From NCBI GenBank assembly GCA_963704885.1, contig CAVPIB010000001.1, forward strand, positions 96,001-160,000: 64,000 bases of DNA. Reading direction: 5' to 3'. The notes beneath the pieces were generated by a model. The model saw nothing but the letters and a program-made list of their open reading frames with translations. It was not told where the DNA came from and searched no databases. This document shows, piece by piece, positions 38,804 through 44,994 of the stretch. The stretch comes from an uncultured Actinomycetes bacterium (GTDB taxonomy: Bacteria > Actinomycetota > UBA4738 > HRBIN12). The stretch's first letter is position 1. The number at the start of each line of letters is the position of its first letter. The translations under genes and the position numbers were made by a program.

Positions 38804-39250
38804 ATGATCAAGCGTCTGTTCTTGGCGGTCGCGATCGTCGCGCTCGTCGTTCCGGCTTGCAGTAGTGACGACGATGGCGGCGGCGCGGGTGGCACGGTAG
38901 GCGTGACGCTACAGGAGTTCTCGATCGCAACTGACACGGGAACACTGGGTGCCGGCGACGTGGTCTTCGAGGCCACGAACGATGGCCCCGATGACGTGCA
39001 CGAGTTCGTGGTCTTCCGAACCGACCTCGGCGCGGCAGACCTTCCAACCGATGAGACCGGCGCCGTCGTCGAGACGGGCGACGGTGTGGAGCTCATCGGG
39101 GAGATCGAGGACATCGCGGTCGGGGACAGCCAGAGCGTGACCCTGGCGTTGGAAGCTGGCAACTACGTCTTCATCTGCAATATCTGGGACGAGAGCGAGC
39201 AGGAATCCCACTACCAAGAGGGGATGCGCTCGACCTTCACGGTTACCTGA
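38804..39250 (+). CDS. Cupredoxin lipoprotein
   Basis: Lipobox VPAC; HEFVV...ICNI...HYQEGM type-1 Cu ligand pattern. Confidence 0.8.
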   Translation: MIKRLFLAVAIVALVVPACSSDDDGGGAGGTVGVTLQEFSIATDTGTLGAGDVVFEATNDGPDDVHEFVVFRTDLGAADLPTDETGAVVETGDGVELIGEIEDIAVGDSQSVTLALEAGNYVFICNIWDESEQESHYQEGMRSTFTVT

Positions 39251-40158: not shown

Positions 40159-40539
40159 ATGGGGTGGGATGACGACGAGCGGTATCGACGTGGACGCGAG
40201 AGGTTCCTCGAGGTCCACGATCCGAAGGCACTCCGCTCGGTGGAGGGGCTGGACGACCTCGGGCGGCTGATCATCGAGACCGTCTACGGCGACGTCTACT
40301 CCCGACCGGGCCTGTCAACGCGGGACAGGGAGCTGGCCGCCGTGGCGTCGCTCGTTGCGCTCGGCCGTTCCTCGCAACTCCCCGCACACCTGCGCGCGGC
40401 GCTGCGAGCGGGGGTCACCGAGGAGGAGCTACGCGAGGTGATCCTCCAGACCGCGACGCTCGCGGGCTTCCCGCCCGCCATGAACGCCATGTCCACCCTG
40501 CGGACGATCCTGGCCGGCAAGGAACCGACGGAGGACTAG
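40159..40539 (+). CDS. Carboxymuconolactone decarboxylase family protein
   Basis: YGDVYSRPGLSTRDREL, HLRAAL, GFP. Confidence 0.88.
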   Translation: MGWDDDERYRRGRERFLEVHDPKALRSVEGLDDLGRLIIETVYGDVYSRPGLSTRDRELAAVASLVALGRSSQLPAHLRAALRAGVTEEELREVILQTATLAGFPPAMNAMSTLRTILAGKEPTED

Positions 40540-41450
40540 GTAGCAGCGGTCGAGGGCCGAAGGATCCCCGCGCTACCGAGCGACGGGCTGTACCGGAGGT
40601 CCGCCGGCGTGAACTGGACGGCGACGTCTCTCAAGGCTCCCCACGGATCGACACCCAGGGAGGGCCAGCCGTGGATGGCCAAGATCTGGTCGCGGAAGCG
40701 AACGGTGGAGCCTAGGAGCTCCTCATCGGTCACCGGGATCGGCGGGGCGACCTCTTCGTGGGTCGAGGGCGACCCAAGGATGGCAGAGGCAGGCGAGTCC
40801 ACCCGAGCGAACGATGCGATCAGCGGGTCGAGGTCCCTCGGCGCCGCCAACACTGCCTGCTGCGATGGATCGGCAAGGCCCGCCGCCCAGTCCCAGAGGA
40901 TGGCATCGCCTCCCGCCTGTAGGAGCGCCAGACGATCCGGCTTTGGAGCGGTCATCGGTGAGGAGAACAGAACCTCGATCGTGGCGTCTGCTCCCCCCGC
41001 GGCGTAGCAGCGTCTGACGAACTCGGCGTCGCTGATCAGTCTCGCTTCGCCGACTGCGAGTCTCGACACGACGGTCGCGGCTCGATCCAGGACGGCCACC
41101 AACAGCTGACGAAGCGTCGCCTCGTGCAACGGAAGACGCCGCATCAACCCGAGCATCGCGAGCATCACGACCGGCTCGTGCACCCAGTTGGGGCCGTCCG
41201 TCGCGAAGCGACGGGCGGCAGAGACGACGGGGGCGATGTCGGTCGTTCTGGTGGGCCGACGGACGTCGGCGAAGACGCTTTGGGCGAGCCCCGCCTTCAG
41301 CGGAGCCAGGCGGACACCGGAGACGGTGGTCGACACCACCGTCTCCGGATCCACCACGATCGCGGTGCGGTCGACGTCGCACTCGTCGAACCGGCGGATG
41401 GCCCACGGCACCCACCCTTTGCCCTGGAACATCACGACGTCCCCCGGCAT
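40536..41450 (-). CDS. Permuted papain-like (YiiX/YebB-type NlpC/P60) protein, apparently inactive; frame open upstream to ~41546
   Basis: PGDVVMF, AIRRFD, VRR, AEFVRRCY, FTPADL..SPSL scaffold motifs; the expected His and Cys are absent. Confidence 0.55.
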   Translation of the reverse strand: MPGDVVMFQGKGWVPWAIRRFDECDVDRTAIVVDPETVVSTTVSGVRLAPLKAGLAQSVFADVRRPTRTTDIAPVVSAARRFATDGPNWVHEPVVMLAMLGLMRRLPLHEATLRQLLVAVLDRAATVVSRLAVGEARLISDAEFVRRCYAAGGADATIEVLFSSPMTAPKPDRLALLQAGGDAILWDWAAGLADPSQQAVLAAPRDLDPLIASFARVDSPASAILGSPSTHEEVAPPIPVTDEELLGSTVRFRDQILAIHGWPSLGVDPWGALRDVAVQFTPADLRYSPSLGSAGILRPSTAAT

Positions 41451-41542
41451 GGGGTGGTCCGGCGCCTCATGTATGGGCCGGTCCGGATCGGTCTCGCTCG
41501 GACTCCCCGAAAGGGCTCCCGAGATCTCGCCTGGGTCCTGTT

Positions 41543-41641
41543 TCAGTGCCTAGGCCACTCTGCGGTGCCGGCGATCATCAGTGCCACAGCCGCGCCTGCG
41601 TACAGCAGTCGCCTCAACGTGGATCGCAGCTTCCCTCCCAT
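41543..41641 (-). CDS. 32-aa secreted-type propeptide MGGKLRSTLRRLLYAGAAVALMIAGTAEWPRH
   Basis: RBS AAGGAGGT 9 nt upstream; basic N-region, hydrophobic core and short polar tail. Confidence 0.75.
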   Translation of the reverse strand: MGGKLRSTLRRLLYAGAAVALMIAGTAEWPRH

Positions 41642-41661
41642 GGTTCCGGACCTCCTTCTCC

Positions 41662-41721
41662 GGGCGGAGGAGTTCCGCCCAGGTAACTCGGGACTTAACC
41701 TTGGGGGTCTATAACTGTCAA
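41662..41721 (-). promoter_or_regulatory. Promoter and leader hairpin of the peptide gene
   Basis: TTGACA at 41721-41716 with a weak -10; hairpin GGGCGGA-N5-TCCGCCC before the RBS. Confidence 0.5.
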
Positions 41722-41828
41722 GCATCGCGTCACGGCGTGCCCTCATCTGGGCGGGTGGCTGGGGTGGCTGATTCGTGCTTGCCTTGACTCGGGGCTAGAC
41801 TCCGCCGCGACAGGTTGTCCAACGAACG

Positions 41829-43121
41829 ATGATGGGAGGGAGAGCCTTGCTCGGAACCAGGATGAAGCGGCTGCGGCTAGTTAGGGGCATGACCCAGAAG
41901 GAGCTGGCCGATCCGAAGTACAGCTACGCCTACGTGAGCACGATCGAGGCCGGGCGGCGCAACCCCTCCAAGGAGGCGATCGAACACTTCGCCTCGAAGC
42001 TGGGGATCACGGCCGACGAGCTGGCCACCGGCACCCCCGCGGACCTTGGCCCTCGGTTGGAGCTCAGACTCCACGAGGCGCGCGTCGCTATGTCCGAGGG
42101 CCACCTCGACCAGGCCGCCGATGAGCTGGCCGCGATAGCCAAGGAGGCCAAGCGCTACCACCTCGTTCGAGTGATGGCCAAGACCGAGGAGGGCCTGGGT
42201 CTGGCGTGCGAACGCCGGGCAGAGCCGGAGGCGGCACTGGAGCACTACCAGCGCTCCGAGGAGCTCCTCCGCGACGAGCCAGCCACCGAGTGGGTGGATG
42301 CGGTAGCGGGCATGGCTCGCAGCTTCGAGGCCATGGGGGACGTCCGTTACGCCATCTTCATACTGGAGAGCCTGCTCGATCGTCTGGACCGCGCCCGGCT
42401 GCGCGACCCCGATGCCCTGGCCAGACTGCACTCGTCCCTGGTGTTCGCGTATCTGGACGCCGGCATCCATCGGAAGGCCGCAGAATCCGCAGCAGAACTG
42501 GAGGCTCTGGCCCCCCGGATGCAAGACCCGATCCGGATCGCCCAGATGCACATGAACGTGGCGCGGCTGTTCCTGCAGGACGGGCGCATCAACGACGCGG
42601 AGCGATCCCTCCGCCGCGCCGAGGACGCCTATCGACACCTCAATCTCCGCACGGAGATGGGCGGCGCACACCTGGCTCTGGGCTACGTCGCCAGCCGGGA
42701 GGGCGACCTGTCGAAGGCACGCTTCGAGCTCGAACATGCGATCGACATCTTCGAAGACACCGCCAACGAACTGGACCTGGCAAGCGCGCTGAACGAGCTT
42801 GCCAGGGTGGAGCGCCTGGAGGGGTCCTCGGATCGAGCTCGATCGCATCTGGAGCGGTCGCTGTCATTGTTGGGTGGGCGCGACACTCCGGTCGTGGCGG
42901 GTTCGCATCGTGAACTCGGCCTCGCGTTGGCGGACCTCGATCCTGTGGACGCGGAGAAGCACCTCCGAGTGGCGATCGAGCTCTACGATCGCTCGGGGCA
43001 GTCGTTCGAGATCGCACTCACCTATCGCGCTCTCGGCGACCTGTTGAACGACGGAGGCGAAGGCGACGCCGCGTCCGAGGCCTACCGGACCGGGATCATG
43101 GCGCTCGAGCCCACGGTGTAG
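41829..43121 (+). CDS. XRE-HTH plus TPR transcriptional regulator (RRNPP-like architecture)
   Basis: RLRLVRGMTQKELA..YVSTIEAGRRNPS, then ~350 aa of TPR-like helices (MHMNVARLF, AHLALGYV, ALNELARV). Confidence 0.85.
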   Translation: MMGGRALLGTRMKRLRLVRGMTQKELADPKYSYAYVSTIEAGRRNPSKEAIEHFASKLGITADELATGTPADLGPRLELRLHEARVAMSEGHLDQAADELAAIAKEAKRYHLVRVMAKTEEGLGLACERRAEPEAALEHYQRSEELLRDEPATEWVDAVAGMARSFEAMGDVRYAIFILESLLDRLDRARLRDPDALARLHSSLVFAYLDAGIHRKAAESAAELEALAPRMQDPIRIAQMHMNVARLFLQDGRINDAERSLRRAEDAYRHLNLRTEMGGAHLALGYVASREGDLSKARFELEHAIDIFEDTANELDLASALNELARVERLEGSSDRARSHLERSLSLLGGRDTPVVAGSHRELGLALADLDPVDAEKHLRVAIELYDRSGQSFEIALTYRALGDLLNDGGEGDAASEAYRTGIMALEPTV

Positions 43122-43134
43122 GTCGGAACGAGCG

Positions 43135-44994
43135 TCAGCGGGGCGCTGCCTGCCTGGCAGATTCCACGACCTCCGCCGCCAGGTCGAAGCGGCCGAACTG
43201 AGGCATGAGATAGATCCCGGCGACATCCACTTGGCTGAGCTGGGCGATCAGCTCTCCAGCCATGGCGAGCCCCTCGCGCTCCGCCTGGTCGCCCGCGGCG
43301 GCCAGCCGCTCCCGCACGGGCCCGGGGATCACGATCCCCGGCACCTCGTTGTGAAGGAACTCGGCGTGCCTGGCGGTCACGAGCGGCAGCACTCCGGCCA
43401 GCAGCGGGGTCGTGAGCGGTGCGCCCGTCACTCGTTCGTAGGTCTCGCGCAAGCGCCCGATCGCATGGGTCTCGTACACCGGCTGCGACAGGAGGAACCG
43501 AGCGCCGGCCGCGATCTTCTTCTCTAGCAGGCGACACTCGCGGTCCAGATCCCGGGCGTTGGGCGCGACGGCCGCCCCCGCGAAGAACGAGGTGGGCTCG
43601 CCGATAGAGGTTCCCCCACGGTCTCGCCCCAGGTTGAAGCCCTGGTTGACGAGCGCCAACAGCCCCGTGGCAGTCACATCGACGTTGTTCGACCCCTGGG
43701 GGAAATCGCCGATCGACACCGGATCGCCCACGCACACGAACAGGTTGCGGATGCCGAGCGCAGCAGCGCCGAGCAGGTCGCCCTGCAGCCGGAGGAGGTT
43801 CCGGCCGCGCGTTGGGAAGTGAAGCACCGTCTCCACACCGACGCGTTCCTGGATCAACCGGCAAGCGGCCCAGGCGCTCATCCGCATCTTCGCCATCGGA
43901 CTGTCGGCCACGTCGATCACGTCGGCCCCCGCTGTCGCAAGCGTCTCGGCCCCGGCCACCAGCGTGCCGATGTCGAATGACCGTGGCGGCTCCACCTCGA
44001 CCGCGATCACGAACCGGCCGGCCGCAAGGCACGCCTCAAGTGCCGTGGGCGTGGCTGCGGGACGGGACGGGTTTCCGGTCTCATAGGGCGTCGTCGCGAT
44101 CGCGATCGCCGGGGCGACGCCTCTACCCTCGAGCGCACTCGCGATCGCTGTGGTGTGCGCCGGGCCCGTCCCACAGCATCCGCCGATCACCGCGGCGCCC
44201 TGGTCCGCGAACGCCACCGCGTGCTCGGCCACGTACTCCGGTGTGGCGGGATACACGAAGCGTCCGCCGACCTGCGCCGGTCCCCCGGCGTTGGGACGCG
44301 CCACGAGGGGGATATCGCCCGCCACGGCTCGCATGGCGCGGATCACGCGGAGCAACTGCGCCGGACCCTCACCGCAGTTCGCGCCCAGACCGTCCACGCC
44401 CATGGCTAACAGAGAAGACGCGACGTGCTCTGGGGAAGAGCCTAGTAGCGTTCGATCGTCCTTCGTGAAGGTGGCGGTCACCACGACCGCGACATCCGGG
44501 TCGGCATCGCGCGCGGCCGCCACCGCCTGCTCCATCTCCCGCAGATCGCTCTGGGTCTCGATCACGAATAGGTCCACGCCTTCTGAGGCAAGGGCCGCCG
44601 CCTGTTCCCGGTATGCGGCGAACGCGACCTCGGGCCGGACCCGGCCGTAGGGGGCCAGCCGCACGCCGAGCGGTCCCATCGATCCCGCAACGAACTTGGC
44701 GCCGCTCTTCCGGGCCACCCGAACCCCCGCGCGGTTCAACTCCTCGACGCGTACGTCCAGGCCGTGCGGCTCCAGCCGGAAGCGGTTCGTCCCGAACGTG
44801 TTCGCAAGCACCAGCTGGGCGCCGGCATCCACGAAACCACGATGGATACCCAGCACGCGACCGGCATCCTCGACGCTCAACAGCTCCATGCAGGCGCCCA
44901 CCGGAGCCCCGGAGTCGATCAGCGCGGTACCCATGCCCCCGTCTGCGATCAGCGGGCGTCCTGCGAGCAAGGTTCGGAGCGCGGCGCCGTCCAT
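43135..44994 (-). CDS. yitJ: Bifunctional homocysteine S-methyltransferase / methylenetetrahydrofolate reductase
   Basis: DGGMGT, GANC, PNAG, GGCCGT; DSPMA, FLHNEVPG. Confidence 0.9.
   Translation of the reverse strand: MDGAALRTLLAGRPLIADGGMGTALIDSGAPVGACMELLSVEDAGRVLGIHRGFVDAGAQLVLANTFGTNRFRLEPHGLDVRVEELNRAGVRVARKSGAKFVAGSMGPLGVRLAPYGRVRPEVAFAAYREQAAALASEGVDLFVIETQSDLREMEQAVAAARDADPDVAVVVTATFTKDDRTLLGSSPEHVASSLLAMGVDGLGANCGEGPAQLLRVIRAMRAVAGDIPLVARPNAGGPAQVGGRFVYPATPEYVAEHAVAFADQGAAVIGGCCGTGPAHTTAIASALEGRGVAPAIAIATTPYETGNPSRPAATPTALEACLAAGRFVIAVEVEPPRSFDIGTLVAGAETLATAGADVIDVADSPMAKMRMSAWAACRLIQERVGVETVLHFPTRGRNLLRLQGDLLGAAALGIRNLFVCVGDPVSIGDFPQGSNNVDVTATGLLALVNQGFNLGRDRGGTSIGEPTSFFAGAAVAPNARDLDRECRLLEKKIAAGARFLLSQPVYETHAIGRLRETYERVTGAPLTTPLLAGVLPLVTARHAEFLHNEVPGIVIPGPVRERLAAAGDQAEREGLAMAGELIAQLSQVDVAGIYLMPQFGRFDLAAEVVESARQAAPR

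Follow-up and report, generated by a model that had tools for sequence, protein, structure and literature searches.

Does an actinobacterial regulator that combines a helix-turn-helix (HTH) domain with tetratricopeptide repeats (TPRs) possess its own genetically encoded peptide ligand? The question is raised by a locus in a 64,000-nt stretch of DNA from an uncultured Actinomycetes bacterium (GenBank assembly GCA_963704885.1, contig CAVPIB010000001.1, positions 96,001 to 160,000 of the forward strand; hereafter the window), in which the start of such a regulator gene lies 205 nt from a divergent small open reading frame (ORF) of 32 aa. The available text of the RRNPP_detector survey defines an RRNPP pair as a TPR-containing receptor of 250–500 aa, an adjacent ORF of 10–100 aa and a Sec-secreted precursor (PMC10075063). 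In that text, which covers a scan of Firmicutes and virus genomes only, this type of peptide system is known from Firmicutes and signalling in Actinomycetota is typically carried out by small molecules (PMC10075063); the accessible parts of 2026 reviews name only gamma-butyrolactones or A-factor for Streptomyces. A literature search pairing RRNPP or peptide signalling with actinobacterial terms found no such cassette in Actinomycetota, most subscription journals lying outside its coverage. Analysis of the locus and its relatives revealed that the pair is conserved, that the tail and cleavage motif of the small ORF product are under protein-level selection, that the tail covaries with the groove of the regulator, and that a cis element is enriched between the two genes. 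We lean towards reading the cassette as a two-gene, RRNPP-like export and re-import peptide switch.

The regulator ORF (430 aa, 41829–43121, plus strand) matches the Pfam families HTH_31 (E 4e-9, residues 8–66), HTH_3, TPR_12 (E 1.7e-13) and further TPR models. The domains given in the initial annotation are thus present, whereas its 430-aa start is probably to be replaced by TTG 41847, which yields 424 aa, because a conserved (V/M/L)-L/I-G-T-R sequence, directly preceded by a GGAGG site, opens the orthologues. An AlphaFold2 (AF2) model built from 53 sequences (predicted local distance difference test, pLDDT, 93.6; predicted template modelling score 0.84) consists of five short helices in the HTH domain (residues 2–61) and 18 paired TPR helices. 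Conservation is highest in the HTH, where P23, Y25, Y29, S31, E34, G36, R38, P40 and S41 are invariant in all 53 sequences. With 424 aa, TPR_12 and 18 paired helices the regulator fits the size and repeat content of an RRNPP receptor, and the divergent 32-aa ORF falls within the length range of the adjacent partner gene.

A whole-genome search found the regulator in 21 of 41 relatives (G000 included; E ≤ 1e-20), a tally that, like those of 36 of 401, 13 of 26 and 6 of 10 genomes given below, rests on unpublished genomes. The orthologues are 58–71% identical, and tblastn with the small ORF gave matches at the same divergent position in the orthologous loci (E 1.4e-10 to 0.03). A scan with one genome per species returned 64 related loci, of which 62 come from metagenome-assembled genomes (MAGs) titled Actinomycetota, Actinomycetes or Actinobacteria and the remaining two from 'Bacterium HR12' and 'uncultured bacterium'. 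When a hidden Markov model (HMM) made from 14 seed peptides was run on the 7,813 six-frame ORFs (at least 15 aa) of loci L021–L084, 42 matched at E ≤ 0.01, 29 of them not identical to a seed, and all 42 are divergent and located no more than 400 nt upstream of a regulator start. With 14 further ORFs and that of the window, which were recognised by position and design, the number of loci that have such a divergent small ORF rises to 57 of 65 (the window and the 64 others); the shared design runs from a basic N-end through a hydrophobic core and an A-x-A site to a tail in which Pro follows an aromatic residue. These locus counts are not independent, since some loci share one MAG or are near-duplicates; the counts of 57/65 and 42/7,813, and the set of 26 genes used below, leave out L006, L019, L093, L096, L097, L098 and L101, which come from unpublished genomes, although a public record, L024, encodes the same peptide as L006.

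A GGAGG-like site precedes the start codon in all 55 listed peptides (27–40 aa), a count that is not blind because the start-choosing script preferred such starts. The strong ribosome-binding site noticed at the outset before the head-to-head ORF of the window is indeed there (AAGGAGGT, 8 nt before the ATG). The open frame is kept across regulators that share only 30% identity, and no family in Pfam or NCBIfam covers the small ORF. As far as sequence comparison tells, the small ORF is a real conserved gene, and the original observation of a regulator with a divergent small ORF is confirmed by the same comparison as lying far beyond chance. That homologous regulators would keep a divergent ORF with a hydrophobic core and a W- or F-containing tail, covarying with the regulator, was likewise borne out.

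The encoded precursors share the layout of a signal peptide. In the window, four Lys or Arg residues in the n-region are followed by a 16-residue uncharged core and a c-region ending A-G-T-A. A rule-based check is passed by 54 of 55 precursors; it asks for a basic n-region, no fewer than 12 uncharged residues, and residues that are small at −1 and either small or aliphatic at −3. Residue −1 is Ala in 54 and Ser in one, and the A-x-A motif stands directly before a tail starting x-[W/F/Y]-P. The part predicted to be released comprises five residues in 31 precursors, six in nine, seven in four and 17 in eight, the 17-residue tails belonging to one clade and ending Cys-Cys. Cys-rich tails were noted in L050–L056 and L060, and also in L057, L062 and L064: the regulators of the Cys-Cys clade end …FECP, and another small precursor group ends …CCG(G).

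Selection on the tail was followed in 26 different coding sequences of clade A, which contains the window. Their last nine codons encode A (−4, 26/26), G (−3, 25/26), a variable residue, A (−1, 26/26), N (19/26), W (26/26), P (26/26), one of K, R, H, S or N, and H (21/26). Fixed residues are spelled with synonymous variation, four Pro codons and four Ala codons being in use. The ratio of nonsynonymous to synonymous polymorphism (pN/pS) is 0.37 for these nine codons versus 1.03 for the 15 codons before them. Read from the codons, the pattern is that of a signal peptide that keeps its hydrophobicity only, followed by a functional short C-terminal peptide. The tail is EWPRH in the window, DWPRH in the closest relative and NWPKH in most other relatives, and tail types follow the regulator clades. 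The mature signal is probably EWPRH: of the two forms first suggested, EWPRH and AEWPRH, the conserved A-G-x-A site points by rule to the former.

Co-folding suggests where this tail could bind. The TPR domain (residues 60–424, 53-row alignment) was modelled with the full 32-aa precursor (26-row alignment), and three runs gave interface scores (ipSAE) of 0.73, 0.69 and 0.67 (median 0.69), compared with 0.06 for the best of three controls; the mark applied is reached by 58 of 80 solved complexes and by two of 110 mismatched pairs. The runs share at least 61% of their contacts. Only peptide residues 23–32 form the interface, lying against regulator residues 200–391, and the tail is accordingly predicted to sit in the TPR groove, as had been proposed from the start. 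In the models W29 touches F200, R240, A277 and Y280; P30 touches M236, G273, L276, D310 and S313; E28 touches S313, N316, E317, V349 and G352; and H32 touches Q233, M236 and N237. Two asparagines singled out earlier as backbone-binding candidates, in the motifs MHMN (N237 in 424-aa numbering) and ALNE (N316), are thus among the predicted contacts.

Covariation, which is independent of the co-fold model, was read from 21 clade-A pairs by comparing receptor columns with the first tail residue. All 15 receptors of N-type peptides have W352, R313 and N316, and 14 have I349. The E/D lineage (the window and L021) has S313 with G or R at 352, the G lineage (L043 and L044) E349 and Y352, the S lineage (L065) E352, and the P lineage (L028) the sole D316. 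Column 352, one of six predicted contacts of the first tail residue, ranks first of 424 for residues never seen in N-type receptors and is altered in three of the four lineages. Over three large clades, 13 of 37 contact positions are conserved inside a clade yet different from clade to clade, versus 58 of 322 other TPR columns (one-sided Fisher p 0.016, which the relatedness of the sequences makes an overstatement).

The intergenic DNA offers a candidate site of action. A strict sigma-70 promoter scan and an intrinsic terminator scan of 40400–43300 returned nothing, and the TTGACA that had been assigned to the small ORF as its own promoter box, although present (41721 to 41716), pairs only with a weak TTAAGT. 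It may instead be one arm of an operator-like element, the AT-rich inverted CTTGAC-N17-GTTAAG, which contains it. The pattern CTTRAC-N15-19-GTTAAG has a single match in the 3.0-Mb genome (GC 67%), at 41694–41722 on the minus strand, and GGTTAAGTC likewise occurs once; a second site, and hence a wider regulon, is not visible with this motif in that genome. Across 53 loci the divergent intergenic DNA (8,728 nt) contains the AT-rich half-site GTTAA[G/C], or the complement, 43 times (4.93 per kb), as against nine times (0.03 per kb) in the other 331,639 nt that these loci comprise.

The arrangement of the half-sites varies by clade. In one clade, whose layout is CTTAAC-N8-TTGACT-N4-GTTAAG-N8-TACCAT, an inverted repeat encloses the −35 box of the peptide promoter, and the TAGACT −10 box belonging to the regulator gene stands back to back with it. 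In the genus of the window CTTGAC-N17-GTTAAG is followed by GTTAC(A/C), a block conserved in the genus alignment, and the candidate regulator −10 box is kept as TAGACT or TACACT in the intergenic alignment; its position and TANNNT form point to TAGACT at 41796..41801 in the window. As the HTH is the most conserved part of the regulator, a half-site shared across clades is what would be expected if the regulator binds there, and we infer that it does.

Two further intergenic features were observed. A perfect 7–9-bp inverted repeat of the type AAGTTCGG…CCGAACTT, at intergenic position 75–105 in six of 19 loci of a sister subclade (L028–L065), shows matched changes in both arms (AAGGTCGG…CCGACCTT) and overlaps the CTTAAC half-site; it was rejected as the operator since it is absent from the genus of the window and limited to those six loci. 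In the L067–L084 clade, whose regulators are 30–33% identical to that of the window, the divergent promoter region measures 106–164 nt in 14 of 16 loci, and a TAGACT-like −10 box about 9 nt before the regulator ATG suggests a leaderless regulator mRNA.

A mechanism is proposed in which the 32-aa precursor would be translated from its strong ribosome-binding site, inserted or exported by means of its N-terminal signal peptide and cut after the A-G-x-A site, which would free a C-terminal pentapeptide, EWPRH here and NWPKH in most relatives. The peptide would build up outside the cell, re-enter through binding proteins of the oligopeptide permease type and bind the concave TPR groove of the cytoplasmic HTH regulator. 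Binding would alter the activity of the regulator at CTTGAC-N17-GTTAAG in the peptide promoter, with feedback on the peptide gene and, in the genus of the window, also on the 304-aa gene that follows. Every step from export and the place of cleavage to re-import and binding, along with the sign and the targets of regulation, is conditional in this scheme. The genome has seven matches to SBP_bac_5 (oligopeptide/dipeptide-type binding proteins) and three to signal peptidase I (Peptidase_S26), common genes that permit an export and re-import route without showing it.

Several points weigh against this scheme. No recognisable small ORF was found in eight of the 65 loci (L027, L034, L036, L037, L046, L047, L058 and L081), and the regulators of these loci keep the predicted groove residues. 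In the co-fold the pLDDT of the partner is only 50–55, the calibration holds roughly because our own alignments were used, and the model could remember solved TPR–peptide complexes. The covariation rests on three to four lineages, two of which are possibly sisters, and the enriched DNA motif was chosen after inspection, in intergenic DNA that is AT-richer than genes. The proposal also requires signal peptidase I to release a product of only five residues. Sequence profiles find known RRNPP proteins through the HTH region only, and the likeness of the TPR fold is unspecific, as detailed below. As a separate observation, three of the eight loci (L034, L036 and L058) have a long ORF of 407–1008 aa directly upstream in place of the small one, and that of L058 ends in an LPxTG-like sorting signal.

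Some of these points could equally reflect a regulator whose TPR domain senses another protein or a metabolite and which merely controls the gene of a real exported or membrane peptide. Plain transcriptional control would fit a conserved cis element in the peptide promoter, as well as the eight regulators that stand without a peptide, and the comparisons that follow favour RRNPP receptors no more clearly than TPR regulators such as MalT domain III and AfsR. A profile search of the Protein Data Bank (PDB) gave the PlcR HTH (E 6.9e-8, residues 6–58) and DdrOC for the HTH region, and AfsR (E 4.7e-17), LGN, OGT and designed TPRs for the TPR part. In Foldseek against the PDB the highest TMt (TM-score normalised by target length) among the matches shown belongs to Rap 4gyo_A (TMq 0.61, TMt 0.71) and 8rtc_A (0.60, 0.70), followed by NprR 5dbk_A (0.57, 0.67), while PlcR scores 0.38 and 0.52; many TPR proteins match, and two long eukaryotic TPR chains exceed Rap in TMq (0.66–0.67). 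A VIA-align search of 48,161 chains placed Rap with bound peptide (8rte_B) at Z 26.2 (root-mean-square deviation, rmsd, 4.4; 332 residues aligned), NprR–NprX 4gpk_A at 21.2, RapH at 20.6, AimR at 19.6 and PlcR at 16.2, while its top matches are human APC (Z 31.2) and APPBP2 (Z 30.4), and MalT domain III (Z 25.0) scores about like Rap. The two fold searches thus cannot tell RRNPP receptors from other long TPR proteins, and the absence of Rgg and PrgX among the matches shown excludes nothing. A product that is no ligand is harder to reconcile with a co-fold that passes its controls with the tail alone as interface, and with groove residues that change along with the first tail residue. A five-residue product, moreover, has few plausible roles besides that of a ligand, and no biosynthetic or transport genes are conserved beside the small ORF. 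We therefore regard this explanation as unlikely.

A rather improbable variant keeps the ligand and dispenses with its journey: the regulator would bind the C-terminal tail of the new or unprocessed precursor inside the cell, in a cell-autonomous feedback or timing circuit. The co-fold, made with the full precursor and needing residues 23–32 only, would be compatible with this, and export is itself deduced rather than observed. The n-region, core and A-x-A site are nevertheless kept in 54 of 55 precursors while the core sequence drifts, which is the pattern of a working signal peptide, and after insertion with the N-end inside, the tail would be outside the cell.

A short, hydrophobic and, by prediction, strongly translated peptide beside an XRE-family regulator also brings to mind a membrane-active toxin (of a toxin–antitoxin or abortive-infection system) or the precursor of a peptide made by ribosomes and modified after translation (RiPP) or bacteriocin, with the XRE–TPR protein as its repressor, and the Cys-rich tails of some clades (…CC, or two spaced Cys) would suit such a product. 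We consider this very improbable: the hydrophobic segment is the least constrained part of the peptide, no modification enzymes, immunity genes or transporters are conserved nearby, and the neighbours of the cassette are housekeeping genes, LytB or polyprenyl synthase for example. That the small ORF is no gene at all and its conservation that of regulatory DNA, as its shortness and lack of a Pfam or NCBIfam family might suggest, is scarcely credible and nearly refuted by the SD sites, the synonymous variation at fixed residues, the HMM scan and the open frame kept at 30% regulator identity.

The export and re-import switch, which we continue to prefer for the window, could be one member of something larger. 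A search with the regulator yielded at least 488 protein clusters (E ≤ 1e-10), under generic names only (such as 'tetratricopeptide repeat protein' and 'helix-turn-helix domain-containing protein'). An even sample of the phylum gave matches in 36 of 401 genomes (E ≤ 1e-25), and in one further family 13 of 26 genomes gave matches, the number of paralogues per genome reaching four. Among the 29 loci L085–L113 a divergent hydrophobic small ORF was found in 22, L096 being added by a Shine–Dalgarno (SD)-based filter; no small ORF passed the filters in L094, L097, L099, L101, L104 and L116. A hydrophobic ORF 594 nt upstream in L098 is doubtful and was not counted as a member. New tail types appear behind an A-x-A-like site (DFPWPWPGS, PWPHCC, and tails with two spaced Cys), and of the four paralogous regulators in one genome (G167, loci L092, L114, L115 and L116) three are paired with divergent peptides that differ from one another. 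Another genome (G114, L117) contains two regulator genes back to back.

Full-length homologues are also encoded in six of ten genomes of the genus Streptomyces (L107–L112; profile E about 1e-97 to 1e-104), and these are 37–41% identical to the regulator of the window. A search with one of them returned 1,395 clusters at E ≤ 1e-30; the Streptomyces clusters listed are 84–100% identical, come from many species (for example S. avermitilis BAC72133.1 / Q82F42) and bear generic names. A divergent ORF accompanied by a GAGG site occurs in all six Streptomyces loci; its product has a conserved basic N-end and a hydrophobic core and, in most cases, an A-G-P-A-x-A motif. In the three clearest loci the palindrome (A/G)TTAAGC-N2-GCTTAA(T/C) lies 25–45 nt before the start codon of the small ORF. 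Against a signalling role, the tails of these Streptomyces ORFs vary in length and sequence and are not conserved; because variable tails do not fit a conserved ligand, we treat the extension to Streptomyces as a lead only. It is possible, if on balance doubtful, that the HTH–TPR receptor with a divergent signal-peptide mini-gene represents a large unrecognised family of peptide switches across Actinomycetota, reaching Streptomyces, with dialects by clade and paralogue. Such dialects would include xWPxH, xFPWx, tails ending CC and tails with two spaced Cys, and the Streptomyces member would be a regulator with 85–100% identity across many species, with its own palindromic box by the divergent signal-peptide ORF.

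The features of the locus are collected in Table 1.

Table 1. Features of the regulator–peptide locus, in coordinates of the window.
Feature	Position	Strand	Remarks and basis
Regulator gene	41847..43121	+	Stop codon included; 424 aa from the probable start TTG 41847, the open frame allows ATG 41829 (430 aa)
XRE-type HTH DNA-binding domain, residues 1–61	41847..42029	+	Pfam match, AF2 model, PDB profile
TPR superhelix, residues ~66–424, predicted peptide-binding domain	42042..43118	+	18 paired helices, fold matches
Small ORF, 32-aa precursor peptide	41543..41641	-	Stop included; conservation, SD site, tail selection
Predicted Sec-type signal peptide, residues 1–27	41561..41641	-	Rule-based check
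Predicted mature pentapeptide EWPRH	41546..41560	-	W and P invariant, tail pN/pS, predicted interface
SD site AAGGAGGT of small ORF	41650..41657	-	8 nt before ATG
Operator-like or promoter element CTTGAC-N17-GTTAAG	41694..41722	-	Genome uniqueness, half-site enrichment, genus alignment
TTGACA inside CTTGAC-N17-GTTAAG	41716-41721	-	
GTTACC after CTTGAC-N17-GTTAAG	41682-41687	-	
TAGACT, candidate −10 box of regulator gene	41796..41801	+	Position, TANNNT form, intergenic alignment
SD site GGGAGGGAG of regulator	41834-41842	+	
Downstream 304-aa ORF, possibly co-transcribed with small ORF	40536..41450	-	Open reading frame

The 304-aa ORF follows the small ORF on the same strand after 93 nt, and no terminator-like site was found between the two. 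A 10-nt palindrome (CCGGTCCGGA / TCCGGATCGG) at 41478–41491 lies in this gap, and an inverted-repeat search of 41430–41860 gave nothing besides it. The proposal that the 304-aa gene is the regulated output did not hold for the cassette at large: its orthologues occur in same-genus loci only, and other clades have unrelated, often convergent housekeeping neighbours. A convergent LytB/IspH gene occurs in eight loci (seven of the Cys-Cys clade). In a third clade several loci have a convergent polyprenyl synthase gene beside nuo genes; one locus encodes a LuxR-type response regulator, and assorted enzymes are encoded elsewhere. Given such differences in what lies past the small ORF, the 304-aa gene would be at best a genus-level output; by this comparison the regulator and the small ORF are the conserved unit.

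The 304-aa protein itself has no Pfam match. NCBIfam YaeF matches at E 1.2e-3 with 18 bits against a cut-off of 279, PF05708 occurs in 11–14% of the members among its atlas neighbours, and the AF2 model from six sequences (pLDDT 39.9) is unusable. These sub-threshold similarities suggest a remote relative of the permuted papain-like (YaeF/YiiX, Peptidase_C92) proteins. Membership of Peptidase_C92 was rejected, as the score lies below the cut-off and no invariant Cys or His, and hence no conserved catalytic residue of either kind, was found in six orthologues. Beyond the regulator, a convergent 619-aa ORF (43135–44994, minus strand) encodes a fusion of two domains, homocysteine S-methyltransferase (E 1.2e-65) and methylenetetrahydrofolate reductase (E 2.4e-22). 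On the other side of the locus, a 148-aa ORF (38804–39250, plus strand) is without a Pfam family and has a hydrophobic N-end followed by Cys (…VVPACSS…), resembling a lipoprotein signal.

If the wider family of switches is real, RRNPP-type quorum sensing by genetically encoded peptides extends beyond Firmicutes and their mobile elements. Which peptides Streptomyces imports by its oligopeptide permease during development is an old question, on which such a family could bear. A conserved receptor–peptide pair would add a second signalling language to Actinomycetota besides small molecules of the gamma-butyrolactone type. The pair would also supply simple synthetic ligands of 5–7 residues for uncultured lineages, together with a testable homologue in culturable Streptomyces, and the family would be a natural series of receptor–peptide specificities for the study of co-evolution.

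Among known systems, MalT domain III (1hz4) and AfsR (8k60) score like or above some RRNPP members in our comparisons; both are large ATPase regulators of the STAND or SARP type, with no XRE HTH and no known partner peptide gene. Rap–Phr of Bacillus and its phages (4gyo, 8rte and 8rtc) gives the best-matching bacterial fold, and its pentapeptide-sized signals and several paralogous pairs with different peptides per genome are reminiscent of the arrangement described here. Rap itself has a three-helix bundle in place of the HTH and acts on proteins rather than DNA, and phr lies downstream on the same strand. PlcR–PapR (2qfc and 3u3w) likewise joins an HTH to TPRs, and the HTH is the only region with profile similarity to the regulator; PlcR binds a palindromic box and regulates its own gene, its activator being the C-terminal peptide of a precursor that is exported. 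It differs in being about 285 aa long with fewer repeats, in the sequence of its box and in having papR downstream. In the Rgg–SHP systems of streptococci the precursors are short and the small peptide gene often diverges from that of the regulator, as here. According to the available text of the RRNPP_detector survey, SHPs differ in having no classical signal peptide and in using PptAB and Eep (PMC10075063).

NprR–NprX of the Bacillus cereus group (4gpk and 5dbk) combines an N-terminal XRE-type HTH and a long TPR superhelix in a single chain of about 420 aa, and the VIA-align match to the regulator of the window extends over 337 residues (rmsd 6.8). Identity in structural alignments is only 10–13%, however, the TPR part gives no profile match and the two belong to different phyla. 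In NprR–NprX the ligand is the C-terminal part of a signal-peptide-bearing precursor, which is encoded by the adjacent small gene nprX, downstream of nprR; here the small gene is divergent, and its predicted product follows the signal-peptidase site directly, without a pro-region. Common descent of the regulator with the RRNPP superfamily would be compatible with these comparisons but does not follow from them; in its modelled architecture it equals NprR, and in the reading proposed here it would work like NprR–NprX and PlcR–PapR.

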